A stretch of DNA of 33,469 nt, from NCBI RefSeq assembly GCF_004010195.1, contig NC_057755.1, forward strand, positions 7,516,501 to 7,549,969, read 5' to 3'. Under the pieces are notes generated by a model. That model saw nothing but the letters and a program-made list of their open reading frames with translations, ran no database searches and was not told the DNA's origin. Origin of the DNA: Chiloscyllium plagiosum (Eukaryota). The translations under genes were made by a program, and so were the position numbers. Below are positions 1,239 to 33,350 of this stretch, piece after piece (the first letter of the stretch is position 1; each line of letters begins with the position of its first letter).

Positions 1239-1452
1239 GAGGAGAAAGTGAGGTCTGCAGATGCTGGAAATCAGAGCTGAAAATGTGTTGCTGGAACAGC
1301 GCAGCAGGTCAGGCAGCATCCAGGGAACAAGAGAATCGACGTTTCGGGCATAAGGCCTTCCTGAAGAAGGGCTTATGCCCGAAACGTCGATTCTCTTGTT
1401 CCCTGGATGCTTCCTGACCTGCTGCACTGTTCCAGCAACACATTTTCAGCTC
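1239..1452. mobile_element. Foldback PLE-derived short element with hammerhead core and 14-bp TSD
   Basis: Inverted arms ~1273-1360 and ~1366-1453. TSD ttgccacctctcag at 1225-1238 and 1453-1466. Interrupts ORF2 of LINE B. Confidence 0.85.
1361..1388 (+). ncRNA. Minimal type I hammerhead ribozyme core (family A)
   Basis: CTGAAGA-A-GGGC-TTAT-GCCC-GAAA-CG-TC matches CUGANGA, stem II, GAAA and a UH site; ACGT palindrome in place of stem III. Confidence 0.75.
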
Positions 1453-3662
1453 TTGCCACCTCTCAGCCCAACTCTGCAGTTTATCCATGTCCCCCTGCAA
1501 CCTGTACATTCTTCCACATTGTCCACTACTCTACCAACTTTCGTGTCGTCTGCAAATGTAATTATCCATCCACCTATGCCTGCGTCTAAGAGATTTATAA
1601 AAAATGGCAGCCAGCAATGTTTCCCAAAACAGATCCTTGTGGCACACCATTAGTAACTGGACTCCAGACTGAATATTTTCCATCAAGCACTACTTTCTGC
1701 CTTCTTTCAGAAAGACAGTTTCTAATCCAAACTGCTAAATCACCCTCAATTCCATGCCTCTGCATTTTCTCCAATAGCCTACCATGTTGAACCTTATCAA
1801 AGGCTTTACTGAAGTCCATGTAGACCATATCAACTGCCCCACCCTCATTTACATGCTTGGTTATCTTCTCAAAAAACTCAATAAGGTTTATGAGACATGA
1901 CCTGCCCTTGATGAAACCATGTTGACTATCTGAAATCAAATTGTTGCTTGCTTGATGATTATAAATCTTATCTCTTATAATCCTTTCCAAAACCATTCCT
2001 GTAACAGAAGAAAGGCTCACTGGTGTATAATTACCTGGATTAACATTCCTTAATAATCTGTTGTGTGGAACTTTGTCAAATGTCCAGAAACACAACAGCC
2101 ACTGATTCAATCTTTTCCATGCTACTGGTTACATCCTCAAAAAAGAACACAAGATTTGTCAGGCATGATTTCCTCTCAGTGAAACCATGCAGACTTCTTC
2201 TGACCCTGACACCGCTTTCCAGTTCCTCTGTTATTACATCTGTAATCTTCGACTCCAACATTTTCCCCATCACCGATATCAGGCTAACCTGTCTGTAATT
2301 GCTTGTGTTCTCCTCTTTTTTTGAACAATGGGCCTTTACATAGTCTGGGATACAGTGCGTCAGACTCTTGGGGACATATTGGGTTTTAATTCCATCAATT
2401 CCCCAATACCATTTCCTGACAGTTAAGGATTTCCTTTAATTCCTCCTTCATGCTTGGTCCTCTATCCCATAGCATTTCTGGAAGATTATTTGCTTCGTCC
2501 TTGGTGAAGACTGGCCCAAAGTAGTTGATCCAACGGTATGTCATCTCTTTGATTTCCATTATAAATCCACATGACTCTAACGGCAAGGGACCCATACGTG
2601 TCTTCACCAGCCTTTTTCTTTTCACATATCGACAGAAACTTGTGCAGTCAGTTTTTTTTAATGTTTTACACAAGCTTACACTTGCATTCTATTTTCTCTT
2701 TCAGAATTAAATCCTTTGTACTCATCTGCTGGAATTTAAATTTCTCCAAGTCCTCAGTTTTGCTGATAACTTTTCTGAACACTTTGTACGCCTCCTCATT
2801 TTCTTTAACACGATCTGTGATTCCCTTGTTAGCCATGGTTGAGCCATGTTCCCAGATTTATGCTTTTCAACATAGGGGTGCGCAATCGTTGAGTTTCATC
2901 GACATGTTCTACAACTGTTTGCCATTGCCTATCCACCATCAAACTCTTAAGTATCCTTGGCCAGTTGATCCCAGCCAATCCATGCCTCATACCATCAAAG
3001 TTAGATCTCTTTAAGTTCAAAAGTCCAGTCCCAGATGTAACTGTGTCACTCTCTGTCTTAATGAAGAATTCTACCATAGTATGACCATGCTTACCCAAAG
3101 GATCTCCCATCACAAAGTTGCTAATTAATCCCCTCTCCTTAAACCACACCCAGTCTCGGATGGCTTCGTCTCTCATTGGTTCTCAACATATGAGACGAGA
3201 ACACCATCCCCTCTATATTCCAAGAAATCTTCCACCATCTCATTGCTACCAGTTTGATTAGATTGAAATTCCCTATAACTGCCACACCCTTATTTCAATA
3301 CCTGTAATATTCTGTTTTATGCAATCCCCATATGCACAACTATTGTTTGATGGTTTGTACACAATTCCCACAAATGTCTTTTCTTATCCACAGCTCCACG
3401 CATACTGATTCTACATCGTCCAGACCAATGTCCTTCTTTAGAATTGTGTTAACCTCTTTCTTAACCAACAACCTTCCACTGACCTCCTTTCATTTCCATC
3501 GATCTTTCCTGATGATTGAATGTTTGTGGATGTCGAGTTCCCATCCTTTGTCAGCCTGGAGCCCGGTCTCTGTGATCCCAATTACTCGAAATCATTAATA
3601 ACTGTTTGTGCAGTAAAATCTTCCACCTTATTAAAAATTATCATTGAAACACAGGGACTTCA

Positions 3663-3891
3663 GAGCTTAAAAATGTGTTGCTGGAAAAGCGCAGCAGGTC
3701 AGGCAGCGTCAAAAGAGCAGAAGAATCGATGTTTCGGGCATAAGCCCTTCTTCAGGGCTTCTTCCTGATGAAGGGCTTATGCCCGAAACGTCGATTCTCC
3801 TGCTCCTTTGATGCTGCCTGACCTGCTACGCTTTTCCAGCAACACATTTTTAAGCTCTGATCTTCAGCATCTGCAGTCCTCACTTTCTCCT
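3663..3891. mobile_element. Foldback PLE-derived short element with hammerhead cores on both strands and 14-bp TSD
   Basis: Arms ~3661-3755 and ~3765-3859. TSD acacagggacttca at 3649-3662 and 3892-3905. Same family as 1239-1452, opposite orientation. Confidence 0.85.
3765..3792 (+). ncRNA. Minimal type I hammerhead ribozyme core (family A)
   Basis: CTGATGA-A-GGGC-TTAT-GCCC-GAAA-CG-TC. Mirror copy on minus at 3728-3755 (CTGAAGAAGGGCTTATGCCCGAAACATC). Confidence 0.78.
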
Positions 3892-4847
3892 ACACAGGGA
3901 CTTCAACCACGTTTCCTTTTTGACTTCTATTGCTCTTTTAGAGTAATGTTGTAATATGACCCTTTTTGGATTTTATCTTTTATCGCTCTGCCTTCCATTT
4001 TCACCGTTCCCATACTGCCTTTGGTTTATGTTACCGCGTTCCTTCCCTCCGACTTCCTGAGCTGGTTTCCCTCCCCCTGCCGTATTTGCTAAAACCACCT
4101 TCAGACCTCCTCAAAGAGCCAAGATGAAGCTTTGCTGAGGTGTACAGTCTCCTTTGCTGAGGTGTACAACATCCAGCTCCTCCTACTCCCCGCTACCAAA
4201 CAGCCAAAAATAACCTGTGTCTACCAAGAGCAGTTGAGTCACCTGGAACAACATGGAACAGAATAGTTTGAAAGAAAATCAACAGTGAGGAGCAGCAAAG
4301 GGGAGAGCTCCAGTGCTGCAGAGATGGAGAATCGACAAAGATCTGTTATTTTACTGTTGCTTATTTCAGTCAACTTCCTTATATCATGTGCAATGTTAAT
4401 GTTTTATTGCATATGGAACCAGATGTGGTTCATTTGTATATCATTTTGGGTTTTTTGGTTTGAGTTGGAACTAAGTTTCATGCTGCAGCTCCTCAGTTGC
4501 TATATGAGCACTGGGATTTATACCATGACCCAGACAAAGTTCAGAGAGCAGCTGTAGATTATCTGGTTACTCTAATTCTCCATTTAATTCGTCAATGACT
4601 AGCACTGAGTCAGGAAGTCCAATGTTGTTCCAGCAGCAGGACGTGTGATAGCGTTGAGCAGGAGGTTGGTCACAAGGTTACATATTTGGCGGTTGCTTTA
4701 CCTGAAACACTACTCGGGTAGTGTCCCTCACCCATCCTCCTCCTTTAACCAAAATAAGAGTTCTGTGCGTCAGTTGGTAAGGTGGTAAGTGTTTTCTTTT
4801 GTGTTTCATTTTTACAGCGGATTGTTTGGGAATTTAAAATAGTGGGA

Positions 4848-5775
4848 ATGGAGGTTAGGACCGTTGAATGTTCCTCCTGCAGTATGTGGGAGGTAAGGGT
4901 CACCTATAGTGTCCCTGCTGATCTCATTTGTGCGAAGTGCACCCAACCTGTGCTCCACAACAACTACATTATGGAACTGGAACTGGAGTTGGATGATCTC
5001 CGGATCATTCAGAAGGTGGAAGGGGTTATTGAGTGGAGTTACAAGCAGGTAGTTACTCCACAGCCACATGACAAAGGCAGATGTGTTACCGTCAGGAGTA
5101 GGAAATGGAACCGGCAGGCAGTGCAGGGATCTCCTGTGGTGGTTCCCTTCAACAACAAGTATAGCATTTTGGATACTGTTGGGGAAGACACACCAGGGGT
5201 AAGCAATGTGGCACAGGTCTCTGAGGCAGAGTCTGGAGCTGCTGCTCAGAAGGGAAGGAGGGAAGTGGTGCAGATCTTTAGTCATTGGGGACTCCATAGT
5301 TACAGGGACAGATAGAAGGTTTTGTGGGAATCAGAGGGACTCATGATTAGTTTGTTGCCAGTTACCAGTGCTTGTATTTTCTCTGATCATGGTTTTAGGG
5401 ATTGCTGAAGAGGAGGGAGAGCGGCCCCAAGTTGTGGTCCACGTAAGCACCAATGACAGTTAGAAAGAAAGGGGGTGGGTATCTAAGGCAGGAATTCGGG
5501 GAGCTGGGGTGGAAGCTTAGAGCTAGACAAAACAGAGTTGTTGTATGTGGCTTGTTGCCCGAGCATGTGCTTGTGAAGCGAGGAATAGAGAGAGGAGTTG
5601 AACACATGGCTACAGGGAAGGTGCAGGAGGAAGGGTTTTGGATTCTTGGATAATTGGAGCTCTTTCTGGGGAATATTGGACCTCTACAAACTGGATGTTC
5701 TTCACCTGAACCATACCGGAACAATATTTGGGGGGAGGGGTTGGAATTTGCTAATGCTCTTCGAGGGGTTTAAAT
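4848..5775 (+). pseudogene. CR1 ORF1 (CxxC..CxxC zinc finger, coiled coil, SGNH/GDSL esterase), frameshifted
   Basis: VECSSCSMWEV...CAKC, ELELELDDLR, VIGDSIV (5281-5301), VVVHVSTND (~5431), LDVLHLN. Confidence 0.85.
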
Positions 5776-6196
5776 TAATGCTGCAGGCGGGTGTGATCCT
5801 GAATTGCAGTTCCATTGTACCGGAGGTTGAGGGTAGTGAGCTCAGGGATAGGTTTACAAGGTCGCGAGAGGGCACCGGCAATCAGCATGTTGGTGTCAAA
5901 TGTGTGTACTTCAATGTCAGGAGCATCCGGGGTAAGACTGGGGATTTTGCAGCATGGGTTGGTACCTGAGATTTCGATGTTGTTGCCATGTCAGAGACAT
6001 GGCTAGAGCAGGGACAGGAATGGTTGATACAGGTTCTGGGATTTACAAGTTTCAGCAAGAACATAGAAAATGGTAAAAGGCGGGGTGTGGCGTTGTTAGT
6101 CAAGCATAGTATTACAACAGCTGAGGACTCATCCACTGAGGTAGCACGGGCTGAAGGCAGAAACAGGACAGGAGAGGTCACCCTGCTGAGAGGTTC

Positions 6197-6867
6197 CTAT
6201 AGGCCTCCGAATGTTTCCAGAGATGTAGAGGAAAGGATAGCAAAGATGATTCTCGATAGGAGCGAGAGTAACAGGGAGTTGTTATGGGGGACTTTAACCT
6301 CCCCAATATTGACTGGGATTTCTATAGTTGAAGTAGTTAAGATGGGTCATATTTTGTCCAAGGTGTGCAGGCAGTGTTCCTGACACAGTATGTAGACAGG
6401 CCAACAAGGAGTGAGGCCACCTTGGATTTGGTACTGGGGAATTAACTCGGCTAGCTGTTAGACTTGGAGATGGTGAGCACTTTGGCGACAGTGACCATAA
6501 TTCGGTTATGTTTACAATAGCGATAGGTACATACAGCAAGGAAAGAGGTATAACTGGGGTAAGGGCAATTATGATGGCATTAGGCAAGATTTAGGATGCA
6601 TAGGATGGGGAAGGAAACTACAGGGAATGGACACACTTGAAATGTGTATCTTATTCAAGGAACAGCTCCTGCAAATCCTTGATAAGTATAGGGCAGCACG
6701 GTGGCTCAGTGGTTAGCACTTCTGCCTCACAGCACCAGGGCCCCAGGTTCCATTCTGACCTCGGGCGACTGTCTGTGGGGAGTTTGCAAATTCTCCCCGC
6801 GTCTGTGTGGGTTTCCTCCAGGTGCTCCGGTTTCCTCCCACAGTCCAAAGATGTGCAGGTCAGGTAA
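6197..6867 (+). repeat. Donor copy of ~670-bp direct duplication
   Basis: Matches 7757-8425 apart from about 3 substitutions and a 2-bp indel. Confidence 0.95.
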
Positions 6868-7756: not shown

Positions 7757-8425
7757 CTATAGGCCTCCGAATGTTTCCAGAGATGTAGAAAAGGATAGCA
7801 AAGATGAATCTCGATAGGAGCGAGAGTAACAGGGAGTTGTTATGGGGGACTTTAACCTCCCCAATATTGACTGGGATTTCTATAGTTGAAGTAGTTAAGA
7901 TGGGTCATATTTTGTCCAAGGTGTGCAGGCGGTGTTCCTGACACAGTATGTAGACAGGCCAACAAGGAGTGAGGCCACCTTGGATTTGGTACTGGGGAAT
8001 TAACTCGGCTAGCTGTTAGACTTGGAGATGGTGAGCACTTTGGCGACAGTGACCATAATTCGGTTATGTTTACAATAGCGATAGGTACATACAGCAAGGA
8101 AAGAGGTATAACTGGGGTAAGGGCAATTATGATGGCATTAGGCAAGATTTAGGATGCATAGGATGGGGAAGGAAACTACAGGGAATGGACACACTTGAAA
8201 TGTGTATCTTATTCAAGGAACAGCTCCTGCAAATCCTTGATAAGTATAGGGCAGCACGGTGGCTCAGTGGTTAGCACTTCTGCCTCACAGCACCAGGGCC
8301 CCAGGTTCCATTCTGACCTCGGGCGACTGTCTGTGGGGAGTTTGCAAATTCTCCCCGTGTCTGTGTGGGTTTCCTCCAGGTGCTCCGGTTTCCTCCCACA
8401 GTCCAAAGATGTGCAGGTCAGGTAA
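7757..8425 (+). repeat. Inserted copy of 6197-6867 (LINE endonuclease segment plus 5' half of SINE)
   Basis: Direct comparison. The copy interrupts the SQHGF region of LINE C ORF2. Confidence 0.95.
8249..8425 (+). mobile_element. 3'-truncated HE1-like SINE carried by the duplication
   Basis: Near-identical to 6691-6867. Confidence 0.9.
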
Positions 8426-9765: not shown

Positions 9766-9859
9766 ATATTAGATGGGCATCAGATTATTTTCAAAGGTCA
9801 GCGCAACATCGAGGGCTGAGTGGCTGAATGGCTGTACTGCACTGTAAGGTTCTATGTTC

Positions 9860-11555: not shown

Positions 11556-11559
11556 CTGG

Positions 11560-13899: not shown

Positions 13900-14760
13900 G
13901 ACGCCCTCCCTCCTGCAGCCACCTGTTCAGATCCACTCGCTACCTGTTCCTCGTGTCACTAGCACGTGGCACCAGTAGTATGTGTGAGATTACTACTCTG
14001 ATCGTCCTCCATTTTTGCTTCCAACCCAACTCCCTGAAATTACCTTTTAGATCCTCATTCCTTTTCCGAGCTATGTAATTGGTGCCAACGTGCACCACCA
14101 CAACTTCTGTTCACCCTCTCCCTTCAGAATCTTGTAGACTCGATCAGAGACATCCCAGACCCTGGCACCAGGGAGGCAACATACCTTCTCGGAGTTCTTT
14201 TTGTCATACAGAATCTCCTGTCCGTTCTGCTAAAATTTGAGCCTCCTATCACTAGTGCTTTGGATTCTCCCCCCTTCTGATTCACTATGGCTTTCTCCAC
14301 GAGGTTGTTCCTGCCAACTTTATCCAAAACTGTATACTTATTATTGAAAGGAACGGCCACAGGCGACCCTGCACTTTCTGCCTGTTCCCTTTTCTTCCAC
14401 TGACTGCAACTAATTGCAACCAATCTACCATTTTCCTGTACCTGAGGTAAGACTCCATCCATGTAACTCCTGTGTATTACCGCCCTTAGGTTCCCAGATG
14501 ATCTGATGTTCATCCAGCTCCAGCGACAATTACCTGACGTGGTGTCTGATGTGATGGATTTGGGTGCACTTCCCACAGATGCAGTCAATGGGGACGCTAG
14601 CAGTCACCGTTACATCCCAAATCCTACAGGAGGAGCATGCAACTGCCCTCACATCCATTCCCACTGTTTCAAATTCCCAAAGAGACTATTGAAAAAAACA
14701 GAAGAACCTCACCAAATCCAAAAACCATTTTTGCTGGAGGAGCTGGATGAATGGTTTGAA
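13900..14760 (-). mobile_element. CR1 LINE (copy E), 5' UTR end and ORF1
   Basis: ORF1 ATG at 14658 (minus); SPVAVPFNNKYTVL, ALVIGGSNF (decayed GDS block). Confidence 0.85.
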
Positions 14761-14761
14761 C

Positions 14762-15460
14762 TGTCGTAACGGCTCACAGCGTTGTTAATAAGATGACCCT
14801 TGGGGCATGTTTATCTAACTCAAGATGACCGAAAGAATTTGACAGTTACATTCAGCAGATGTTCGCAACCACATTCGTCTCAATGTCGATACACTGGATA
14901 AGATGAGATTCACTAGAGAAAGAAACATGAGGAAATTAATCAGGTTTGTGTGAACAAACGGTTCTAAACTTATAAGCAATCAAATTAAGGACATTTTATT
15001 TAGCCACACCTCCAACCTAGTTCTTCAGTCAAAAGTAGAAACAAAAGTCTGATCTAACACCATTCTGAACTATTTAAATAATTGTAGAAATCAAAAGTGT
15101 CTGGGAGCACAGGGTGTATCCAAGTGGTTCGTTTGGATTTGGTTAAATATTGTTAAGAGAAGACTCGACAACAGCAGTTTTTTAAGTGTGCGTGTTAATT
15201 AAGTAATAATAATGATAATAGTAAGAGCAGTAAATGGAAAAGAAAAGGATAAAAGGCAACAAGTCTCACACCCTGCTGCCCGTTGGGGTCCCCTCGTTTG
15301 ATAGCACATCTGGAGAATTAGGTTCGTTGGTGATCCTGGAACGAGGTGATTTTCAACTCTTGAAAATAAAATCTCTCCGTCTCTTATAGCATAAAGCAAA
15401 CAGCCAACACAGGAAACAGCTACAGAATAAAAACAAGCTGCCAGTAAATGAATGCTCACA
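14762..15460 (-). repeat. Possible 3' LTR of the ERV
   Basis: Minus strand ends ...gttacgaCA at 14762; AATAAA on minus at 14995-15000; lies downstream of integrase. No partner LTR in the window and the inner boundary is uncertain. Confidence 0.35.
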
Positions 15461-15494
15461 TGAATAATTCAAGCTGTAGAATAGCATCATTATC

Positions 15495-15625
15495 TTTCCC
15501 AGCCTCTTCCCAAGTTTTGCCCCTTCCCAAGTAGAACCCTCTGCGTACTGCTTGAGGAAAGTTTCCTGAATGCACTTAACAAACTTCACTCCATCTAAGT
15601 CTTGAACACAATTGCACCCTTGATA
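15495..15625 (-). mobile_element. Small CR1 ORF2 endonuclease fragment
   Basis: DLDGVKFVKCIQETFLKQYAEGSTWEGAKL. Confidence 0.7.
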
Positions 15626-16283
15626 ATATTTGACAGCGCATGTTACAATTGCTAATGCAGGCACAAATCAGTGATAGCTGCACGAGAACGTATAGTAAGA
15701 TTATGTAACCGACACCAGAAAATTAAAAACTGCAATAAAAATAACCATCATCTGTATGAATAATGTAAGAATAAGGAGTATCATCAAATTAATGAGCACA
15801 GTGGCCTATTTCGTGAGGTACAGCAGCTGCCATCTGATGAATCATCTGCAACAGCTTCCACCCGTAATAAATTGACATTGTTCTGTGAAGAAATCATATC
15901 GTATCAGTGTACAATCTTTGATAACTGGCTTTCTTTTGTTAAGTTTCCTCTGTCTCTGTACTCTGTCGCTTCCTGCCCCGTTATCAATACCCAATAAGTA
16001 TCACCTTGTCCAGGGGCAAGATTCTCGCTTGGCTCAGACAGGTCTTGTGGGTCGTGCACCAACATTTTTCCGCTGTACAAAGGTGCTGTAGGTATATTGG
16101 GAGGATGTAACTGGCTACCCACTTTAAACATTCGACTCATGAATTGTCCCTCCTTTCAGGGGCTGGTTAATCGGATTATGCAATGCACTTTGAGCCACTG
16201 CTGTAACGTATGATTAGGGGTCAATAACTTAATTTCTTGTTTTAATAACCCATTGCTTCATTAACCAAGGCCAGCTGATTGAC

Positions 16284-16308
16284 AAGAAAGAAAGAAAGAA
16301 AGAAAGAA
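16284..16308 (+). repeat. (AAAG)n microsatellite inside the integrase remnant
   Basis: aagaaagaaagaaagaaagaaagaa. Confidence 0.9.
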
Positions 16309-17383
16309 TGTGGAACATCCAATGGATCCCATTGTTGCACCTGTTGATCTTTCATGTGTGATCTGTTGTTCGATTGTATTTCTGATGCTTCAGTATTCTG
16401 GGACATCGACTATTCTAGTCCCTTAATAGAGGTACTCTGATCTGCTTTCATTGTCGGGAAAGCTAAGATTAGCCTGCTCTAAGGGTCCACCATGGTTAAC
16501 AGATATGTATATTGTTGTTGCAATGGTAATGGGTGAACGCAGTTAATCTGCCAGATTTGAACAGGATAATCTCGTTTGATTCGTGTATTTGATTTTTGTG
16601 GCAGTGATGCGGGTTTTGCCTTTTAACACATCTCACATTTGCCAGTGAAATCTTCACCAGATAGGCGGGTAAGTGCTAACCCTAATTACTTGCCCATTGC
16701 ACAATGCTGTGATAGCCTAAATTTCCTGATATTCAAGAGCCCAATTTTCAGCGTAATTATCTTCAGATGCATCGTCAGATTCATTTTCTGACTTTTATTA
16801 TTCAATCTACAGCATTGCTGTGATCAGCAGATTCCAAAACATCTTTCACTTGGGCATCAATATGGTACACAGTAATTTTCATGCGCTGTGCCGTCACCCA
16901 TATTTGTTTCAAAGTTTTGTTGCCTATGGGGCTTTCCAGTAATTTTCCAGTCATGTGACCACCAGGTTGGCATTCATATAGCTATTCCATTGGCCACCAC
17001 CCACCAGGCAGTATAAATGCGCAGACACAGAATCTCTTCTCTCAGTTCTAGGACCACAGCTGCTAACTTGGCAAACTGGCTCGATCCCCCATCTGCTTCA
17101 CTGTGGATAATTATCTGTGTGGCACGATTAAACAGCCACTCGCCACCACCTTCGACCATTCTTCCAGGTGGCTGATAGATCAGTGAAGTAGGTTCAGTGG
17201 CGAGTATATTCTGGCAGTCGTTCAAGCAGAACACCCCTTTAAAGGGAGATGCAAATATATTCTAGTCAGAGCTCGGAGTTTGTTCACCTGGTGGGTTTTA
17301 AGCGATTTGATCATGGAGTTTGGTAATCCCTTCCTTTCAATTTTTTGTTCAATCAACTATGTGACATTTCTATTTTGCAATGG

Positions 17384-17587
17384 AAAAGCACATCAGTTCA
17401 GGCAGAATACGAGGAGCAGGAAAATCGACGTTTCGGGCAAATGTCTTTCATCAGGATTCCTGATGAACGGCTTTTGCCTGAAACGTCGATTTTCCTGCTC
17501 CTCGGATGCTGCCTGAATTGCTTTGCTTTTCCAGCAACTTTCTACTCCAGTATCTGATTTCCAGCATCTGCAAGTCATGATTTTTAC
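17384..17587. mobile_element. Foldback PLE-derived short element with hammerhead core, inserted in ERV pol
   Basis: Centre ttcatcaggattcctgatgaa. Plus core CTGATGA-A-CGGC-TTTT-GCCT-GAAA-CGTC from 17460. TSD ctattttgca(a/t)tgg at 17370-17383 and 17588-17601 (14 bp, 1 mismatch). Confidence 0.8.
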
Positions 17588-18902
17588 CTATTTTGCATTG
17601 GGGTTTTGTTGCGCTTTCCTGAACTAATGGATTGCAATGTCAAATAACTGTGACATCAAAATTTGTAACTCAAGTCACACGAGAACTTTGTCCTCACCCA
17701 TCTGTCCGTCAGTTTCCACTAAGGCACAGTCGCAGGCCAGTTGTGATTTTTCAAATGGTGTATAACGTGCAACTGGTTCAGTCAGTTTTCTGGTCCAGAA
17801 GCCCAAAAGAATTGATTTCCCCCTTTATCTCTACTGTAAGTTCGATGTGACTACATCTTTTGTTACTAATACTTGAATTTCAAAGGGTAAGCTAGTTATC
17901 CCAGAAGCCAGGTGCAGCGCAAGAGCTATGGCCTCTTTATCAACCAGAAATGCTATCTGCTTTTCACCGCACCGTTCAAACTGAGGTTTCTTTCATGTCA
18001 TAGCATATAAAGGTCTGAGTAACGTGGTCAAGTGAGGTATATGTCTCTGTCAATGTCCAAGTAGACGTATAAATTTCTGTGCTTCAGCCTTCCTAGTTTG
18101 AACTGCCATCACTTGTATTATATTATTTTATTTTCGCGATTACCCTATCCCGTTTTGTCCACTGGATTTCTGAGCACCGATTGTGCTCGTCTCTGTATCT
18201 TTTTTGGGGTTTACTTCACAGCCTTTGTTTTGCATTTTTACCTGTGTGTCTAGAACTTCCAACACCATGCTTTCTGTTGCTTCACAGATCAAAATGTCAT
18301 AAATACAATGTGCAATATGATTATCTGGTGATAGTGTAGACATATCTAAATCCTTTTCCAGTAGCCCAGGGCACGAGGTTGGGCTATGTAGATATCATTG
18401 TGGTAGTTGGCAGAAGGCATATTGATGATCCTCCCATGTAAAAGCAACCTGAGCTTGTCATTCCAGAGCTATCGGATTTGCTTCATAAATAATGACGTAG
18501 CAGTCATCTGGCCTCTGATGAATTTTCTATAACAGTGACCATACTAGACACAGCCGCTGAGAGTGGAAAAGCATCTGTGTTCACTTGGTGATAAATCAAC
18601 TGTCATTCACCAACATCCATCAGGCTGGTTTCCAGGCTATACCGGGCCATAGCATGCGGACACTACGTATACCACAATCCCCAGAGCTAACAGGCCATGT
18701 ATAGTATCCCCAATTTCTATGTGTAATCCTGAAATATGATACTGTTTCTCAAAACCACCTATGTGGGTGGAGGGGTAATGAGGCCCCCCACTTTGCCTTA
18801 CCAACAGTAACCATCTCAGCTCATACAGCAAAAGAATATTTGCCCATTGGGGTTTGAAAAGTGGGACCTCTCAACACATTCATGTCAATAATATTTTCTG
18901 AC

Positions 18903-19058
18903 AGTTTGGATATCAATGCCAGGACTGCCCATGGGCGTCCATTCTCCAAGGCCAATCTAATATTCGAACTGTTGCTGATATCACCCCACCAAATCCATTA
19001 ATATTTATTCTGGGCCCCTACGTCTATGGGGGGTTGCCATGTATAAACGTAAAAGCCT
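18903..19058 (+). repeat. 156-bp segment duplicated at 19478-19633
   Basis: Direct comparison; 1 mismatch seen. Confidence 0.95.
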
Positions 19059-19210: not shown

Positions 19211-19467
19211 TCCGCTGTAGTGGGCGGTATATTGGGTCCAGGTCTATGTGTTTGTTGATGGAGTTTGTGGATGAGTGCCATGCTTCTAGGAATTCCCTGG
19301 CTGTTCTTTGTTTGGCTTGCCCTATAATGGTAGTGTTGTCCCAGTCAAATTCATGTTGCTTGTCATCTGCGTGTGTGGCAACTAGGGATAGCTGGTCGTG
19401 TCGTTTCGTGGCTAGTTGATGTTCGTGGATGTGGATCGTTAGCTGTCTTCCTGTTTGTCCTATATAG
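19211..19467 (-). mobile_element. Penelope-like element GIY-YIG fragment, inverted copy
   Basis: Reverse complement of 19632-19888 with scattered substitutions; runs into the gap. Confidence 0.9.
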
Positions 19468-19632
19468 TGTATCTGGTAGTTTGGATATCAATGCCAGGAC
19501 TGCCCATGGGCGTCCATTCTCCAAGGCCAATCTAATATTCGAACTGTTGCTGATATCACCCCACCAAATCCATTAATATTTATTCTGGGCCCCTACGTCT
19601 ATGAGGGGTTGCCATGTATAAACGTAAAAGCC

Positions 19633-19998
19633 TATATAGGACAAACGGGAAGACGGCTAACGATCCGCATCCACGAACATCAACTAGCCACGAAACGACG
19701 CGACCAGCTATCCTTAGTAGCCACACACGCAGACGACAAGCAACATGAATTTGACTGGGACAACACTACCATTATAGGGCAAGCGAAACAAAGAACAGCC
19801 AGGGAATTCATAGAAGCTTGGCACTCATCCACAAATTCCATCAACAAACACATCGACTTGGAGCCAATATACCGGCCACTACAGCGGACAGCTGAAGCTG
19901 ACAACCGGAAGTGGCAGGGACAGGCCACTATAAATGCCGGAGGAAACACCACAGAAGCGCTTCACAGGAGGCTCCCAAGCACTGAGGATGTCACCTAG
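19633..19998 (+). pseudogene. GIY-YIG endonuclease fragment of a PLE (open frame, but lacks the GIY half and RT)
   Basis: YIG motif and conserved R, EH, E and N. The first 8 aa of ORF 19609 derive from unrelated duplicated ERV sequence. Confidence 0.85.
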
Positions 19999-20018
19999 AC
20001 AGGCGACGAAACGTTTGC
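19979..20018 (+). ncRNA. Minimal type I hammerhead ribozyme (family B)
   Basis: Stem I GCA/TGC; CTGAGGA; T; stem II GTCACCT-AGAC-AGGCGAC (6 of 7 pairs); GAAA; CG; TT (GUU site). Confidence 0.85.
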
Positions 20019-20096
20019 AACAAAAACTTCCAGCTCGGCGAACAGAACCACAGCAACAAGCACCCGAGCTACAAATCTTCTCACAAACTTTGAAAT

Positions 20097-22899: not shown

Positions 22900-25800
22900 G
22901 CTACTAGGGAAAAGCCACTGTGGCGTGGATTATGGCTCAGAAGGGAAGAAGAGAAAATAGGAGAGTGATAGGAGATTCAATGGTGAGAGGAAGAAACAGA
23001 AGATTCTATGGTCGTGAACAAGACTTCCAGATGATATGTTGCCTCCCGGGTTCCAAGGTAAGAGATAAGTCAGATAGCGTCTACAGGATTCTTTGGGGAG
23101 TGGGGCGGGGGGAGGGGGGAGTTGGGTGGGGATGCGGGAGCAGCCAGAAAACATGTTACACTTTAGTTCCAATGACACAGCAAGGAAAACGGATTAGGGC
23201 ATTAAAAGAGAACATAGGGAATTAGTTTGGAAGCTAGAAGGAGGACAAGAAGAAGAAGAATCTCAGGATTGTTACCAGTGCCACGGGATAAGTGAGGCGT
23301 GGAACAGAGAGCAAATGCAATTGAACACGTTGCTGCTGGGCTGGTGGAGGAGTGAGAGCTTCAGATATGTGGATGTTTGGAATGACGTCTGGGGAAGGTG
23401 GGACCTGTAAAAGAAGGACGAGTTGCACATGAACTGGAGGGGCACCAATATCGTGGGCAGGCGGGTTGGTCGAGCTCATTGGCAGTAATTGAACGGAATT
23501 GGCAGTGTGGTGGTACGGATTTGGCAGAACCGGAGGTACGGAGCAGTGGAATGAATAGGAATTGTTCAGCCAGATGCAGCATGCAGAGGGTCTGTGATGG
23601 AGAGATAACATTTGACAGGACAAATTTGCAGTCAGTATGATGGGCTGAAATGAGTCTATTTTAACGCAAGTAGTATCAGGAATAAGGGTGACGAGTTCAG
23701 ATCATGGAGCAGTACTTGGAACCATGATGCTGTGGCCATTATGGAGACTTGATATCACAAGTGGGGAGCGGCATTGCTAATCAGGTATTGTATCACAGCT
23801 ACAGAAAGGAATGTTACCAAGGAGGGTTTGTCTGCAGAGTCTGCATGAATGGCAGTCAGAAACCTGAAAGGAGCAGTCATTTTATGGGGAGATTTCTGCA
23901 GACCACCCAAAAACAACAAAAACACGGAGGAGTGGAGTGGGAGGCAGATTTTGGAAAGTTGCAGAAGTAACAGGATTGTTGTCATGGGCGTTTTTAACTT
24001 CCCAGTTATTGATTGGAATCTTCTTAGTTCAAATGATCTGGTACCCCTCCAGTGCTTGTAACGTGTGTCCATGAAGGGTTCTTGACTCAACAGGTAGATA
24101 GCCCAACTCCAAGGGAGGCCATATTTGATTTGGTGTATGGCAACGAACCAGGCCAGGTGTCAAATCTTCGATTGGAGAACTTTTCGATGATAGGGATCAC
24201 AATTCCCTGACCTTTACCACACTCATGGAGAGGGATACGAGCAGACCATATTGGACAGTATTTAATTGGGAAAGGGGAATTAAATCGCTATTCGACAGGA
24301 ATTGGGGCACCAAATTGGGAACAGATGTTCGCCATAAAATGCATAACAAAAATATGGTATCGATTACTTACAGTGTGGAAACAGGCCCTTCAGCCCAACA
24401 AGTCCACACTGACCCGCCAAAGCACAACCCAATCAAACCCATTCCCCTACACTTACCCCTTCACCTAACACTATGGGCAATTTAGCTTGGCCAATTTACC
24501 TAACCTGCACATTTTTTGGACTGTGGGAGGAGACCAGAGCTCCCAGACGAAACCCACGCAGACACGGAGAGAATGTGCAAACTCCACACAATCAGTCACC
24601 TGAGGCGGCAATTGAACCTGGGTCTCTGGTGCTGTGAGGCAGCAGTGCTAACCACTGTGCCACTTGCTGGTAGTGCTTGATAGGTTTGTCCCACTGAGGT
24701 AAGGAAGGCATGTTCGGGTGAAGGAACATTGAGTGACAAGAAATGTAGAACTTCTGGTAAAGAGGAAGAAGGCAGCTTACTCAAGGCTGAGGAGGCAAGG
24801 ATCAGGCAGGGCTTTAGTGGGATAAAAGGTGGCAGGGAAGATATTGAAGAATTGCCTTAGGCGACACACACAGAGGCAAAAAAAAATGATTTGGTAGAGT
24901 GGATTGAGGAGAATCCCAAAGAATTCTACACTTATGTGAGGAGCAGGGGGATAGCCAGAGTAAAGATAGCGCCATTCAGGGACAGTGGTTGGAACTTGTG
25001 CCTGGAGTCAGAAGAGGTAAGTGATGTCCTTTGGGAATACTTTGGCTTCAGTATTCACGACTGAGAGGGGGGTATTGTTTATAAGGACAGCGTGAAACCG
25101 GCTGATAATCTCGAACAGGTTGTTCATAAGAACGATCATGTGCTGAAAAGTTTGAACCATATAAGGATAGATACGCCTCCTTGGTCAGACGGGATATACC
25201 CTGGATTACGACAGGAAGCAAAAGAAGTTATTTCTGTGCCTTTGGCGAGGATCTTTGCATCATCAGTGTCCACTGGATTAGTGCCAGATGATTTGTGTGT
25301 GTCAAATATTATTCCTTTGTTCAAGAAACGGAATCTGGACAATGCTGAGAATGTCAGACCAGTCAGTCTTAAGTCTGGGACAGGTAAAGCATTGGAAAGG
25401 ATTTATGATTATTTGAAAAACGGGAGTTTGATTAGACATAGTCAGAATGGGTTTTTGAGGAGGACGCCAGGTCTCACAAAACTTACTGAATTCTTTGAGG
25501 ATGTGACAAAAGATATTGATGAAGAAAAAGCAGTGGATGTGGCATGCAAGGATTTCAGCAAAGCTTTTGATAAAGTTCCCCATAGCAGGCTCATTCAGAG
25601 GTAAGGAGGCACAGGATACAGGGAAATCTGGCTGTCTCAAGACAGAATTGATTGTTTCATAAAAGACAGAGAGTGGTCTTAAATGGATACTATTCTGCTT
25701 GGAGCTTGGTAAACAGGGGTGTTTCTTTGGTATCTCTTCTGGGACATCGTCTCTTAATTTTTATGAATGATCTAGATTAAAAAGTGGACGTGTGGGCAAG

Positions 25801-26306: not shown

Positions 26307-26319
26307 CTCACTGAAAGAT

Positions 26320-26466
26320 CTTTTTTTGGATTAGTGGTGCTGGAAGAGCACAGCAGTTCAGGCAGCATCCGAGGAGCAGCTCCTCGGATGCTGCCTGAAC
26401 TGCTGTGCTCTTCCAGCACCACTAATCCAAAATCTGGTTTCCAGCATCTGCAGTCATTGCTTTTAC
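26320..26466. mobile_element. Foldback element with perfect 54-bp arms and deleted hammerhead core
   Basis: Arms 26324-26377 and 26379-26432 with a 1-nt spacer. Flanked by ctcact(g/c)aaagat at 26307-26319 and 26467-26479. Confidence 0.85.
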
Positions 26467-26474
26467 CTCACTCA

Positions 26475-26810
26475 AAGATTAGACTGGTGCTGGAAAAGCA
26501 CAACAGGTTAGACAGCATTTGAGAAGCAGGAAAATCGACGTTTTGGACAAAAGCCCTTCATCAAGAATGGAGGCAGGGAGACTCCAGGGTGGAGAGATGA
26601 ATGGGAGGGTGTGGGGCTGGGGAGAAGGTAGCAAACAGTAGAATAGATGGATAGGTGTCAGGATGAAGGTGATGTGTCAGAAAGGAGGGTGGAGCGGATA
26701 GGGGGAAGGACGATTGGCAGGTAGGACTGGTCCTGAGGATGGTGCTGAGCTGTAAGTTTGGAACTGGGGTAAGATGGGGGAGGGGAATGAGGAAACTGGT
26801 GAAGTCCCCT
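26475..26810 (-). mobile_element. Longer non-palindromic 3' end of the family A PLE with degenerate hammerhead
   Basis: Minus strand TTGATGAAGGGCTTTTGTCCAAAACGTC at 26537-26564; same downstream tail as the foldbacks; ~245 bp of upstream pyrimidine-rich sequence. Confidence 0.7.
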
Positions 26811-26814
26811 CTAT

Positions 26815-28620
26815 CTCTACTGTCCACCTTATTACAGGACAGTGTGCGATATTTTCTACAGCCAAATGGAGAGGGGAAGGATTCTTGAATATCTAAATCT
26901 GGATTTTATAAGTGATTTCCCTTGCTGAGCCTTCATACCCAAAGTTCATACTCTTTCTTCTGCTCTAAACATGTGAAAAATTTCTCTTCCAAAGTCTTTG
27001 TTTCCAAAAGCTGCTCATTCTGCTCTCTGGCAGCCCCCTGTTCGTAATTGTTGCCTGAAAAGTTTTTCTCAATCTCCCCTACAATTCCAGCCGTAACATT
27101 TCTACCTCCTGTTCTCTCCTCAATACTGTTAGGATTTACCCTTAGGTCTGTAATTCTTAATTAACCTTCACACATTTATATCAAAAGTACCCTCCGATGA
27201 CCTTTGAGTTAATAAATCCTGATATTCTTTCCAATTTTTCAGAAATTTTTTACAAACTCCCGTTTTACTACTGGAAAATCCTTAACAAAAATTCCAACTG
27301 CACCCCCATCATTCCTGACATATATTTCAATCCATCTAATCTATTACTTTTGGTCTCACAATTCACTCCCTTATGCCATACAAGTCCAGTCACGCTTCTT
27401 ATAAATAAACCTTACTCTACAACTCGCAATCGTCCCGGACCAATCTAACATTCCCAAAACTTGCTAAATATTAACTAATTAACAAAAACAATCTATTCTC
27501 AATCATTTTGCCGAATCCATTCTAAGACTGCATCTGCAGAATGCACTAATCACTGATAGTTTTTTTGAAACGTTTTTCAAGGAATTCTTAACGTGCAAAA
27601 CAAAACACCCCCAGATTTTGAACTTCAGGGAGAGAAAACAAACATTTAATCAACAAACAATTATGCATACAAACCAGGTCAAATGGTTAAACCAGAGTCT
27701 CTCTCTCTCACACACACAGAGCCTTGCCTAAACAGATGCTTTGTTCTTTTCTACAAAAAAATACAATCTAATTGTCATAAAGGCCTTGTCTTAAACTTTC
27801 AACAGTCGAGTTATACTTTTACACTGACAATTCACTACTATTTAAATTTTAGTCATCAGCTGCCGGCTTTTAATTTCATCCAAAATCACTCACACGACAC
27901 AGCCCTGTCCGAGCAGATCGCCACGCAATCGGCAACACCCATGCATGACTCGTGAATTGATAAACAAGGGATTTACTAACACGACCTGGAATTTTGTCTC
28001 AATCTCTTTATTCCATACTACTCACACCCTGTGCAATTCTCATCAACAAACCTTTGCGTCCCCTCAAACTTTAGTTTACCATCAAACTTTCTGGTTCTTT
28101 GGATCAGACAGACCCAACAGCAGCTTTCTTTGCACTTCTGTGCTCCCGAGAATCTCCCTTATTTGACAGAATTAGCTGCAAACCGCTTACCTTCCTTTTG
28201 TGGGTGGCCGGCCCTTTTATTCCCTCTGTGTCAGGAGAGCATTCGGTTCAACTGGGAAGTGCCCTGCAGCTGCTTTCCAGAGAAAAAGGTCTCTTCCCGG
28301 TCTCATCTGGGGTGCCACATCTGTTGGGGAAGAAGCACTCGACGTTAAAAGAAAATACAAGGAGAAACAGAAAATCCTTCACGAAGTCAAAATTTAATCT
28401 TGCAAAATCAAAACTGTGGGAAGCAGCAAAATGTCTTTCCTAGTTCCCCACAAAATCAATATTCTCCTGTAACTTATACAGTTGCTCTTATCTGATATCA
28501 TTAGCATAGCTAATCATGCTGGCTTGTTTTGGCTTTCTAAACTAATCATCGTCTGCCACATTGGTTCCCTCCATTACACTTAACCTTTCACATTCCAACA
28601 CCATAATCTTCAGCATTAGC
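26815..28620 (-). mobile_element. Possible LTR element: non-coding 3' internal region, PPT and start of 3' LTR
   Basis: Minus strand GAGGAGAGAACAGGAGGTAGAAA followed immediately by TGTTACGG at 27098. No coding motifs recognised. Confidence 0.35.
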
Positions 28621-28655
28621 TCACCTCCTGGTGATTTAATTCACCTATCACAATA

Positions 28656-28750
28656 GAAGTTGGTGGGAAGATTTGTAGCTCGAGTGCTGGTTGTTGTGGT
28701 TCTGTTCGCCGAGCTGGGAATTTGTGTTGCAGACGTTTCAATCCCTGTCT
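28656..28750 (-). mobile_element. ~95-bp PLE 3' tail (family B) truncated within hammerhead stem II
   Basis: Reverse complement agacagggattgaaacgtctgcaacacaaattcccagctcggcgaacagaaccac...gagctacaaatctt aligns with 19997-20090. Confidence 0.85.
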
Positions 28751-28783
28751 CCTGTCAGATGTGGCGCCTCTGACATCCCCTCT

Positions 28784-30235
28784 CTACTTTCCGCCAAACA
28801 GGTTAAAACTATGACCCCTCGTGTTAACAATTTCTGCCCTGGGAAAAAGTTTCTGGTTATCAACTCTATCTATGCCTCTCATTATCTTGTACACCTCAAT
28901 TTGGTCCCCTCTCTTCCTTCTTTTTTCCAATGATAAACTTCTGAGCTCAGTCAACCTCTCTTTGTAAGAAAAGCCCTTCTTTCCAGGCAGCATCCTGGTA
29001 AACCTCCCCTGAACCCTCTCCAAAGCATTCACATCTTTCCTGTAATAGGGCGACCAGAACTGGACACAATATTCCAAGTGCGGTCTAACCAAAGTTTTAT
29101 GGAGCTGCAACAAGATCTTACGGCTCTTAAACGCAATCCCCCTGTTAATGAAAGCCAAAACACCATATGCTTTCTTAACAACCCTGTCAAATTGAATGGC
29201 AATTTTAAGGGATCTATGTGCCTGCACACGAAGATCCCTCTGTTCCTCCACACTGCCAAGAATCCTATCCTTAATCCTGTACTCAACTTTCAAGTTCGAC
29301 CTTCCAAAATACATCACCTCGCATTTATCCAGGTTTAACTCCATCTGCCACCTCTCAGCCCATCTCTGCATCCTGTCAATGTCATGCTGCAGCTGACAAC
29401 AGTCCTGTATACTGTCAACTACACCTCCAACCTTTGTGTCGTCTGCAAACCTGCTGACCCATCCTTCAATCTCCTCACCCAAGACATTAATAAAAATTAC
29501 AAACAGTAGAGACCCAAGAACAGAGCCCTGTGGAACACCACTCACTACAGACTTCCAGGCAGAATACTTTCCTTCCACTACCACTCGCTGTCTTCTGTCA
29601 ACCAGCCAATTCTGTATCCAGACTGCTACATTCCCTGTATCCCATTCCTCCTAACCTTCTGAATGAGCCTACCATGGAGAACCTTATCAAATGACGTTCT
29701 GAAGTCCTTATTCACAACATCCACTGCTCGACCCTCATCAACTTTTCTGGTAACATCCTCAAAGAACTCGATAAGGTTTGTGAGGCATTACCTGCTCCTC
29801 ACAAAGCCGTGTTGACTTCCTTTAATCAAGCCATGCTCTTCCAGATCGTCATAAATTCTATCCCTCACAATCCTTTCTAACACCTTGCAGATGAAAGACG
29901 TGAGACTGACTGGTCTGTAATTGCTGGGGATTCCTCTATTTCCTTTCTTGAAGAGAGGAATTACATTTGCCTCCCTCCAGTCCTGAGGTATGACTCCGGT
30001 AGAGAGCGATGATGCAAAGATCTTCACAAGCGGCGAAGCAATCACATTTCTCGCTTCCCAAAGCAGCCGAAGACAAATCTGGTCTGACTCTGGCAACTTG
30101 TCAATCTTAATGTTTGTCAAACTTTTCAACACATCAACTTCCTCAATCTCAATCTGTTCCAGCATGCACACCTGCTCCTCAATGGTTTCATTCACTACCA
30201 GGTTCTTTACTTTAGTAAAGACAGATGCAAAAAAA
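28784..30235 (-). mobile_element. CR1 LINE ORF2 fragment (copy H), best-preserved RT in the window
   Basis: ORF 28784-29584 (266 aa) GVPQGSVLG..FADDTK..RPHLEYCVQFWSP..TRGH; ORF 29788-30195 NYRPVSLTS..SQHGF. Confidence 0.92.
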
Positions 30236-30239
30236 AACT

Positions 30240-32190
30240 CATTTAGGGCTTCCCCTACCTCCTCATACCTCTCATGACTTTGTAGGTACCCCCTTCAACC
30301 TCTGTCTTTCTAATGAAATGAATGAATCTACACAGTGTCTCTTCATAGATAGCACCCTCCATACCAGGCAACATCCTGGTGAACCGCCTCTGCACCCTCT
30401 CCAAAGGATCCACATCCTTTTGGTAATGTGGCGACCAGAACTGTACACAGTATTCCAAATGTGGTCAAACCAAAGTCTCATACAACTGTAATATGACCTG
30501 CTACCTCTTGTACTAAAATCCCTGTCCGATGAAGGACAGCATACTGTATGCCTTCTTGACCACTCTACTGACCTGATTTGCTACGTTCAGGGAAAAATGG
30601 ACCTTGAACATCCAGATTTCTCTGTACATCAATCTTACACAGGACTTTTCCATTTACTGTAAAGTAGCTTTTGAATTAAATCTTCCAAAATACATCACCT
30701 CGCTTTTGCCCGGACACTCTGACAGATCCCTTCACAATCTGCTACTCCACCAACCTTAGTGACATCTGCAAACTTGCTAATCAGGGCACCTACACCTTCC
30801 TTCAAATCATTTATGTGTATCACAAACGACAGTGCTGCCATCACAGATCCTTGTGGTCTCCATTTTGAGAAACTCTCTTCCACTGCTACTGTCTGTCTCC
30901 TGTTGTCGAGCAAGCTCTGGACCCCATGCAACATCACCTTTTCATCAGACTACCGTGGGGAACCTTATCTAACACCTTACCAAAGACCATGTATATGACA
31001 TCTATAGCCCATCCCTCATGAATCAACTTCGTCACTCCTTCTAAGAATTCTATTAGGTTGGTAAAGCATGACCTTCCCTGCACAAAGTCATCTTGCCTAC
31101 CACTGATAAGTTCATTTTCTTCCAAATGGGAATAGATGCTATCCTTCAGTATCTTCTCCAGCAGGTTTCCTACCACTGACGTCATCCTCACCGGTCTATA
31201 ATTACCTGGATTATCCCTGCTACACTTCTTAAACAAGGGGACAACATCAGTAAATCAGCTGCACTGTGGCTCAGTGGTTAGCACTGCAGCCCCACAGCAT
31301 CAGGATCCCAGGTTCGATTCCAGCTTCAGGCGACTGTCTGTGTGGAGTTTGCACATTCTCCCCGTGTCTGCGTGGGTTTCCTCCGGGCGCTCCGGTTTCC
31401 TCCCACAGTTCAAAATGTGTAGGTCTGGTGAATTGGTCATGGTAAATTGCCCACTGTGTTAGGTATATTCGTCAGAGGGAAATGGGTCTGGGTGGGTTGC
31501 GCTTCGTAGGGTCGGTGTGGACTGGTTGGGCTGAAGGGCCTGTTTCCACACTGTAAGGAATCTAATCCAGTCCTGCGGGACCTCCCCTGTGTTTAAGTAT
31601 GCTGCAAATTTTTCTGTTAATTCCCCCAGCTATTTCCTGTCTCACTTCCCTTAGTAACCTGGGATAGATCCCATTGGGATCTTGGGACTTTAATACCTTT
31701 TAGAATACCTAACACCTCCCCACTCCTTTTGCTGACTTGACCTACAGTAATCAAATATCTGTCACTAACCTCAACATCCCTCGCCTCGGTGAACACCGTT
31801 ACAAAGTACTCATTCAGAATCTTGCCCATTTTCTCTGAATCGACAAATAACTTTTCTCCTTTGTCCTTCAGTGGGCCAACTCTTTTTCTAGTTCCTCTTG
31901 CTCCATATATATGAATCAAAGGCTTTGGGCTTTTCATTTACCCGGTTTGCGAAAGATATCTCATGACCCCCTTTCTCCCTCTTAGTTCCACGTTTCAGTG
32001 TGGTCCTACATTCCTGACATTCTTCCGAAGCTTCGTCTGTCTTCATTCGCCTAGACCTTATGCATGCCTCACTTTTCCTCTTTGCTAGTCTCACAATGTC
32101 ACCTGTCATCCATGGTCCCTAATCTTGCAATTTCTATTTCTCATTTTCACAGGAACATGTCTCTCCTGAACTCTAATCAACCTCTCTTTA
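30240..32190 (-). mobile_element. CR1 LINE ORF2 fragment (copy I), interrupted by a SINE
   Basis: EYCVQFWSPHY, PQGSV..FADVTK, NPGNYRPVRMTSVVG, RVGPLKDK. Confidence 0.88.
31258..31567 (+). mobile_element. HE1-like V-SINE
   Basis: TGGCTCAGTGG A box, GGTTCGATTCC B box, V core, gggcctgtttccacactgta tail. Confidence 0.92.
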
Positions 32191-32191
32191 A

Positions 32192-32400
32192 AAGCAATAA
32201 CAGAAATTGCTGGAAAAGCTTCACAAGTCCGTCAGCATTTATGGAGAGAAATCAGGTTTAACGTTTGGAGTTGAGTGACCCTTCCTCAGTGGTTTCTTTG
32301 CACAGTTTATTTTCCCACCGATGCCGTCTGTCCAACTGAGATTTCCCAGAAATGTCTGTTTTTGTGTCTGATTTACTGCACTTGCACTTCTTTCGATTTC
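32192..32400. mobile_element. Old degenerate foldback element with hammerhead remnant (family C)
   Basis: Arms acagaaattgctggaaaagct..cagcat and gatgccg..agatttcccagaaatgtctgt. Minus core CTGAGGA-A-GGGTCACTCAACTCC-AAA-CGTT at 32260-32289. Confidence 0.6.
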
Positions 32401-32634
32401 TACAAGATACCAACTTCAGATACTGAGGTCAAAGAGGGAAAGTAAGTTGCTACTCATAGACTTTGTGTCTCCTTCAGAGGAACAGGTTTATCGATTACTG
32501 CGGAGAGGCCAGATAAATTGAATGTGCTCTAGTTAAGAAAGCGACCATTGTGCATTGGGGTCGAGTGGGATTGTTAAGGGCGGGTGGAGGAGGAGTGGGA
32601 GATCTGGTGATGATTGCCCCACAGTGGCTTACGG

Positions 32635-33350
32635 TGATTTGGAGATGCTGGTGTTGGAATGGGGTGTATAAAGTTAAAAATTACACAATACCAGGTTAGA
32701 GTCCAACAGGTTTAATTGGAAGCACACTAGCTTTCGGAGCGTCGTTCCTTCATCAGGTGGTTGTGGAGGACACAGTTGTAAGACACAGAATTTACAGCAA
32801 AAACTTACAGTGTGAAGTAACTGAAATTATACATTGAAAATACCTTGATTATTTGTTGAGTCTTTCATCTGTCAGAAAACCATGAAAGCTTCATTTCTTT
32901 CATCTGTAAATCACAAAACTTTTTTTAAAGGTTACGTTCTCAGGTTAAATGTAACAATTGGTGTCAGACAGATATGTTGAAGGTGTTCGCCCCCTGTGTT
33001 CCCTGTCTGTGCCATAATGTTTAGATTGATTCTAATCTAAAATGTGAGTTAACAGAGTCTTACATGGATTCATTCATTTTTTGAGCAAAGTACAATGTAA
33101 CTCTGCAAGTACAAATTCACCCCAGAAACATATATATCTATGTGTGCTAGTGGGTTTGTGTGTGTCTGTGTCTGTCTGTGTGTCTGTCTGTCTGTCTGGG
33201 GTTGGGGATTGTGAGAATGAGAAAAAGTGCATATGTGTGTGTATGAGATTGTAGAGTGTCCAGCTGTGTGAGAGGGTGCATGTGTGTGTGTTGTAGGAGT
33301 GTGTGGGTGAGAGTTGGGGAGGGGTAAGGGATTGTGATTGTCAGTGAGAG
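32635..33350 (-). mobile_element. PLE-type 3' terminal region with hammerhead (family D) and TG/CA-rich tract
   Basis: Hammerhead ~90 nt from the presumed 3' end; tail ccaacaccagcatctcca resembles the ccagcatctgca tail of family A; TG-rich at 33158-33310. Confidence 0.6.
32725..32759 (-). ncRNA. Minimal type I hammerhead ribozyme (family D)
   Basis: Stem I CAC/GTG; CTGATGA; A; stem II GGAAC-GAC-GCTCC (4 of 5 pairs); GAAA; GC; TA; AGCT palindrome. Confidence 0.8.

Follow-up and report, generated by a model that had tools for sequence, protein, structure and literature searches.

Minimal hammerhead ribozymes (min-HHRs) have been described in the end modules, or pseudo-long terminal repeats (pLTRs), of metazoan Penelope-like elements (PLEs), together with the diversity of their families and their genome-wide spread (Cervera and De la Pena 2014, PMC4209133). 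For PAc, a Poseidon element of Anolis carolinensis, two internal start sites of the reverse transcriptase (RT) bound a tail of 30-40 nt, the two target strands are each cut and extended, and the process does not require cleavage by the hammerhead (Frangieh et al. 2024, PMC11167929). Among sharks, Penelope is listed with the genomic repeats (PMC8455134), and a Penelope expansion has been noted in whale shark introns, in an account whose available text does not mention ribozymes (10.1101/443036). The window analysed here, that is the whole stretch of 33,469 bases from contig NC_057755.1 of Chiloscyllium plagiosum to which all coordinates refer, carries eight loci with hammerhead cores or their remnants. 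Judged by sequence, these loci are pLTRs of PLEs and belong to two Neptune-type lineages (families A and D), one Poseidon-type lineage (family B) and old relatives.

We consider it probable that the loci are dispersed PLE end modules with a minimal type I hammerhead, and that run-off copying of the element's uncut RNA, over its first ~90-130 bases, is the likely origin of the short ones. A bolder proposal, for which we judge the case to be evenly balanced, is that most of the inserts in this genome are 5'-leader copies of Penelope mRNA with the hammerhead uncut at their start, rather than cut-down 3' ends, and that the inverted pairs, or foldbacks, are fossils of two-ended insertion by a paired RT that primes the two target strands from separate internal start sites.

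Identity and abundance of the hammerhead-bearing ends

A strict pattern, consisting of CTGANGA, a stem II of 3 bp or more, GAAA, a palindromic tetramer and H, finds four intact minimal hammerhead cores in the window, at 1361 (+), 3765 (+), 19982 (+) and 32756 (-), as compared to 300 dinucleotide shuffles that average 0.04 and do not exceed 1. When the palindrome rule is dropped, the window yields six matches against 0.21 in shuffles, the two extra ones being a decayed copy at 3755 (-) and an apparent chance match at 28613 (-). A second, independent repeat search of the window returned the same eight loci, one per 4.2 kb. Genome-wide (3.56 Gb), exact patterns consisting of the core, a G10.1-C11.1 pair and a tetramer ACGT or AGCT have 132,571 + 31,351 = 163,922 matches, one per 21.7 kb, whereas the reversed patterns have 38 + 9 = 47. 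This rate predicts 1.5 cores in the window, from which the observed four do not differ significantly (p 0.07).

The density of loci, as opposed to exact cores, was estimated from 120 random 10-kb stretches of contigs C1-C48 (1,139 kb without N), with positions drawn within lower bounds of each contig's extent and small contigs left out. The first 100 stretches hold 98 strict cores, 66 of them palindromic, against 3 and 0 in reversed sequence. A search of all 120 with 11 reference ends found 407 arms in 310 loci, and none in the reversed control, giving one locus per 3.67 kb, or 272 per Mb (bootstrap 238-307), with the matched parts making up 4.1% of the sampled bases; extrapolated, the genome total is ~0.9 million loci. 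The density of the window is typical of the genome. The preliminary description, made from the sequence of the window, had listed the eight loci as cores or remnants and had considered what would follow if their density were typical; the loci are real, with four intact cores and the remainder remnants as it said, and both the random samples and the genome-wide motif scan that it proposed bear out the density, the motif clearly exceeding its background frequency.

The coding sequence upstream ties the ends to PLEs. Family A ends are preceded by a GIY-YIG frame with a C-x4-C-x2-C linker, family D ends by frames for RT and endonuclease, again with this linker, and by a CA-rich untranslated part, and the family B end, within the window itself, by an endonuclease without the linker. 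A CX2-5CxxC linker is likewise absent from those B loci whose sequence extends far enough upstream (L060, L152, L154, L156 and L177). Such a linker before the endonuclease is diagnostic of Neptune and is not found in Penelope/Poseidon (PMC8557442), a distinction by which A and D would be Neptune-type and B Penelope/Poseidon-type. Pfam models matched RVT_1 (E 4e-4) and GIY-YIG (E 8e-4 and 3e-4) in sampled loci, all below gathering cut-offs, and gave no match for the window's own endonuclease piece. Long frames in full-length candidates were set aside as N runs or, in locus L170, a tandem endonuclease repeat; there, at L170:3080-5455 (-), a family A endonuclease piece is present in about a dozen tandem copies, and all three frames are open for more than 760 codons.

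Families C and E, both older, have downstream sequence in common with family A, family C being tied to PLEs by this likeness downstream of the core and by its foldback form only. Because of that shared sequence, the four families in the window probably represent three lineages plus old relatives. Further traits of PLEs, namely an optional 30-40 nt tail, an inverted 5' copy and a variable target-site duplication, are all present; target-site duplications (score at least 10) flank 52/310 loci and 0/310 chimeric controls, and measure 13-15 bp in 31 of the 52. These duplications, and the occurrence of identical ends in independent contigs, led to the rejection of an assembly artefact. Median non-CpG divergence ranges from 0.6% (subfamily A3) to 8.8% (family D), which implies several waves of insertion. 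Subfamily A3 (L044, L054, L075, L078, L125 and L129) is the youngest, with cores intact in 11/12 cases, and alone among the A subfamilies has a perfect 4-bp stem I, making it the best test case for cleavage.

Each element of a minimal type I motif (CUGANGA, GAAA and NUH) is present, the tetramer being ACGT or AGCT. In the window, stem II reads GGGC/GCCC, GTCACCT/AGGCGAC, GGGT.. or GGAAC/GCTCC according to family, and families differ in step, with a first pair of stem I that is C-G, A-U or U-A, with changed stem II pairs, and with a 15.2-16.2 pair that is C-G or G-C. Among seven representatives, 18/21 stem I positions are paired against 10.0 after permutation, and 27/28 in stem II against 17.9 (p ~0.002 each, a value that overstates independence given the kinship of families A, C and E). 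Pairing was scored by position in the motif; a MAFFT alignment of 15 cores had placed family D off by one column. This covariation points to selection on the motif in master lineages, and selection may keep the hammerhead in active master elements, working as a dimer or with protein help, rather than in dispersed copies.

In the dispersed copies themselves the core decays in a neutral-looking manner, at a rate equal to that of neighbouring bases. For 79 copies whose alignments extend well beyond the core, mismatches in core and flank are 3.8% and 5.2% at A/T sites (p 0.18), and 7.6% and 7.0% at G/C sites (p 0.69). The best core per locus (n=310) is intact and palindromic in 71, intact but non-palindromic in 49, mutated in 118 and absent in 72. 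An intact core with its stems is found in 53/310 loci, 18 of them in foldbacks and 35/310 outside a foldback or complex locus, and the predicted cost of opening the core in the window's three core-bearing A foldbacks is 24-34 kcal/mol. The loci are thus mostly broken or predicted to be folded shut, and are not an active ribozyme reservoir. That the host retains the motifs as functional ribozymes is very improbable: some 11% of loci are intact outside foldbacks, and copies occur on both strands in polyA RNA reads (from an organism that may differ from the window's species), but the mismatch rates of cores do not differ from those of flanks, and minimal hammerheads lacked activity as monomers in vitro (PMC4209133). 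Single exapted copies may exist. Much of what the preliminary description drew from the window survives, including the differences in stem II between families, the PLE origin and the foldback inserts. Its four families stand as several families that are probably fewer lineages, and its large reservoir stands as one of PLE ends and foldbacks, not of working ribozymes.

Ends of the copies and the origin of foldbacks

With positions counted from the C of CUGANGA, the family A cut site follows +27. The 5' ends of family A arms (n=230) cluster sharply upstream of it, with 101 at -8..+3, one at -32..-13, seven at +28..+31 and 36 beyond -60. The pattern persists among the 120 arms whose likeness to a reference is 90% or more, where 50 ends lie at -6..+1, three at -40..-7, three at +26..+30, 21 beyond -40 and 43 elsewhere downstream. 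Short copies therefore begin 1-8 nt upstream of CUGANGA and not at the cut site. Genome-wide, 14,460 of 40,484 A1 cores (36%) continue with six templated bases to -9; had all of them done so, a divergence of 4% would leave ~78%. In public sequence data from an organism that may differ from that of the window, X17 contigs and X21 RNA reads show loose ends at -3/-4 with roughly tenfold lower depth upstream, and 93% of the matching X21 reads carry on into different sequence, which is what read-through of inserted copies should give; run X22 yielded no matching reads.

This edge may mark a transcription start. It matches what we take to be the initiator consensus, and upstream of it TTATCT is found at -34 or -36 in 23/31 long A copies and ATAAA at -35..-39 in 6/7 long D copies; in family B, ATAAA lies at -47..-52 in 14/17 copies. 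The RNA may start 4-6 nt upstream of CUGANGA, which would put the hammerhead at its 5' end. At the other end, 3' ends fall into two modes ~35 nt apart, corresponding to the known tail. An element protein would nick the target and begin reverse transcription inside the RNA at either of the two sites that bound this tail, as has precedent in vitro for the anole element (PMC11167929), and copying would run off the RNA 5' end to leave a short copy with an unbroken cut site. Since the hammerhead lies between the RNA start and the priming sites, every short insertion would carry it, and the high count would follow. At L008, a family A locus, the tail continues into an ATG 36 nt beyond it and a putative Penelope-like N-terminus. 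The A1 tail of L008 also ends in a pyrimidine run and AG, resembling a splice acceptor, 36 nt before the ATG; no donor site was seen in the module.

An alternative that we regard as unlikely is that the edge reflects structure and not an RNA start, with reverse transcription from the 3' pLTR stalling or switching template at the hammerhead fold. In its favour, 5' truncation is typical of PLE insertions (PMC8557442), 20 of the 120 young arms end within the core and 23 further downstream, and no cap-derived G is seen at the edge. The peak, however, lies on the far (5') side of a fold that is weak (z -1.8 to +0.6), the next 30 nt upstream of the edge are almost free of ends, and promoter-like boxes stand ~30 nt upstream of it.

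Foldbacks have a strong polarity, with 77 head-to-head inverted pairs and 1 tail-to-tail pair among the 310 loci, and most consist of only two pLTR heads of ~200-230 bp. Because of the flanking target-site duplications, each foldback can be taken as one event. In 62/67 same-family foldbacks of families A, B and D, and in 34/34 of those with a verified duplication, one arm is tailed and the other tail-less, whereas tails are present on 94/166 single copies, a frequency that predicts 49% one-tailed foldbacks if arms were independent. Both target strands may have been primed, one from each start site, with the two cDNAs then joined head to head.

For rotifer Penelope elements, antisense-template self-priming has been put forward; as a source of the present foldbacks it is less probable, though we would give it some weight. 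It accounts for the head-to-head polarity (PMC3846280), and short palindromes are found at some foldback junctions, but by itself it leaves the one-tailed rule unaccounted for, and sense RNA primes both target strands in vitro (PMC11167929). More doubtful still is the notion that short and foldback copies are self-propagating non-autonomous elements, akin to retrozymes or miniature inverted-repeat transposable elements, with masters of their own. Uniform size, very high copy number and target-site duplications would fit such mini-elements, and tandem retrozymes derive from pLTRs (bioRxiv 10.64898/2026.07.22.740005). Against them, foldback centres differ among copies, the upstream promoter-like box is missing from short copies, subfamily letters are common to short and long copies, and tandem arrays of the module are absent from the window, with nine direct pairs among the 310 sampled loci.

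Several observations weigh against copying from the start of an uncut PLE transcript. An extra G at -5, a possible mark of a capped end, was not found (G in 4/21 single copies); family B has a TATA box yet no 5'-end peak, with 19/40 arms beyond -60; and the 5'-end peak of family D is broad. In old subfamilies without a matching reference, alignment ends may stop at -4, and only nine single A copies with a 5' end at -6..0 have a verified duplication. The link from tail to open reading frame (ORF) is seen at L008 only, and there is no whole element or whole ORF among the 14 candidate loci fetched. Finally, a first test found cores better kept than flanks, but its copies were chosen on the core edge, and the apparent selection on dispersed cores, which was rejected as a product of that bias, is gone in the 79 copies.

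The loci of the window and their surroundings

Nearly all of the window is made up of repeats. Three of its loci are family A foldbacks with cores. The head-to-head A1 foldback at 1239..1453 has its tailed arm on the minus and its tail-less arm on the plus strand, with an intact core at 1361 (+) and a 14-bp target-site duplication on both sides. A second A1 foldback (3660..3891) carries an intact core at 3765 on its tailed plus-strand arm and another at 3755 (-) in which the tetramer has decayed at a CpG, and is also flanked by a 14-bp duplication. The third, an A2 foldback at 17381..17587, retains the core letters at 17454 (-) and 17460 (+) with stem II broken, and has a 14-bp duplication with 1 mismatch. 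It sits in a decayed retrovirus- or long terminal repeat-type pol region with many stops (14700-19000, minus strand), which carries putative RT, RNase H and integrase-like motifs.

The family B (Poseidon-type) 3' end at 19633..20090 (+) comprises the GIY-YIG endonuclease frame, a TATAAA box, the intact core at 19982 and a tail, and beside it lies an inverted copy of the family B coding part, at 19211-19467. A 162-nt direct repeat (18897-19058 and 19472-19633, 98%) lies beside an N run, with one copy between the inverted family B coding halves; it looks like neighbouring DNA captured at a foldback centre, or a misassembly. An A2 foldback without a core, both arms of which begin at about +35, occupies 26324..26469 and has a 13-bp duplication with 1 mismatch, and is followed at 26477..26761 (-) by an older A2 end with ~200 nt of element body, whose dead core at 26564 reads TTGATGA (C3 and G12 changed). 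A family B fragment (28659..28750, minus strand) begins within stem II and lacks CUGANGA. The old family C foldback at 32195..32395, the core of which at 32289 (-) has lost G12, has genome relatives 71-89% alike. The family D (Neptune-type) 3' end at 32635..33140 (-) combines a long CA-rich untranslated part with the intact core at 32756, an AGCT tetramer and a tail. Sequence from 32190 to 33140 recurs at 95-97% identity ~200 kb off on the same contig, and partly on small contigs, and is likely a segmental duplication.

Rfam covariance models gave no hammerhead family match in the window at E up to 1, and only spurious microRNA hairpin matches. A type III reading of the motif, with the cut just before ATTC, was rejected on inspection, because the sequence offers neither a stem I hairpin nor a matching stem III. 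Elsewhere in the window are many fragments that we take to be CR1-like long interspersed elements, and four copies of a presumed tRNA-like short interspersed element (6693-6849, 8251-8407, 24509-24663 and 31258-31414). The segments 6229-6849 and 7787-8407 form a 99% identical local duplication, CR1-like with a short interspersed element inside, which is either recent or an artefact of assembly.

Comparison with known systems

Loci of this kind are already in print, including their genome-wide dispersal (PMC4209133) and inverted, tailed insertions (PMC3846280, PMC8557442), and what is gained here is scale and mechanistic detail. With published min-HHRs the present cores have in common a type I core with an extra base between A9 and G10.1, a G10.1-C11.1 pair, palindromic 15.2-16.2 positions without a loop III, a short stem I, and a distribution of many families per genome, mostly as single dispersed copies (PMC4209133). 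The differences are a stem I of only 2-4 bp, and scale, since the 163,922 exact cores compare with ~4,000 in coelacanth and ~9,000 in Xenopus tropicalis, an excess of ~18x that is rough because descriptors differ; cartilaginous fishes are not named in the part of that paper available (PMC4209133). Searches of the open literature brought up neither a hammerhead count from any cartilaginous fish nor a description of the 5' edge; Dfam, Repbase, subscription papers and bioRxiv supplements lay beyond this survey and may hold these families. The motif had no match in the 12 of 24 other supplements of PMC8455134 that were searched, the whale shark repeat library (supplement 20) falling outside that search.

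Tandem non-LTR retrozymes are alike in being non-coding, hammerhead-bearing and pLTR-derived, but are tandem repeats with a hammerhead in each unit, whereas the present loci are single or in inverted pairs; in its available text, the preprint describing them covers one cartilaginous fish and tandem forms only (bioRxiv 10.64898/2026.07.22.740005). Inverted-pLTR Penelope insertions (Arkhipova et al. 2013, PMC3846280; Craig et al. 2021, PMC8557442) likewise show an inverted 5' copy, a one-sided tail, a target-site duplication and TATA- or initiator-like motifs, and a pLTR promoter has been described for Drosophila Penelope (PMC2377424; reviewed in PMC6765202). Unlike those insertions, most foldbacks here (77/310 loci) are two pLTR heads alone.

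A further parallel is PAc, with which these loci have in common two start sites bounding the tail, insertion from uncut RNA and the use of both strands (PMC11167929). No RNA ends are reported at the cut site of PAc, and in X21 no pile-up of read ends was seen there, in a fragmented polyA library that is unable to show such ends. The ORF of PAc starts in stem II, whereas the ATG at L008 of family A follows the tail by 36 nt. In the part available, that study fixes the 3' ends and describes neither a 5' edge as sharp as the present one nor a strict rule of one tail per foldback. The present footprints, hundreds of thousands of dated insertions with both ends readable, bear on how PLEs integrate and on the role of their hammerheads. 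They speak for an uncut RNA as the source of insertions and for start sites that are paired in a fixed way in foldbacks. Scans for ribozyme motifs in such genomes will be swamped by dead copies. If the bolder proposal above is true, this would be the largest hammerhead load reported for a vertebrate, with ~200,000 near-perfect hairpins able to yield double-stranded RNA, and a genome-scale record of the unsolved mechanism of Penelope integration.

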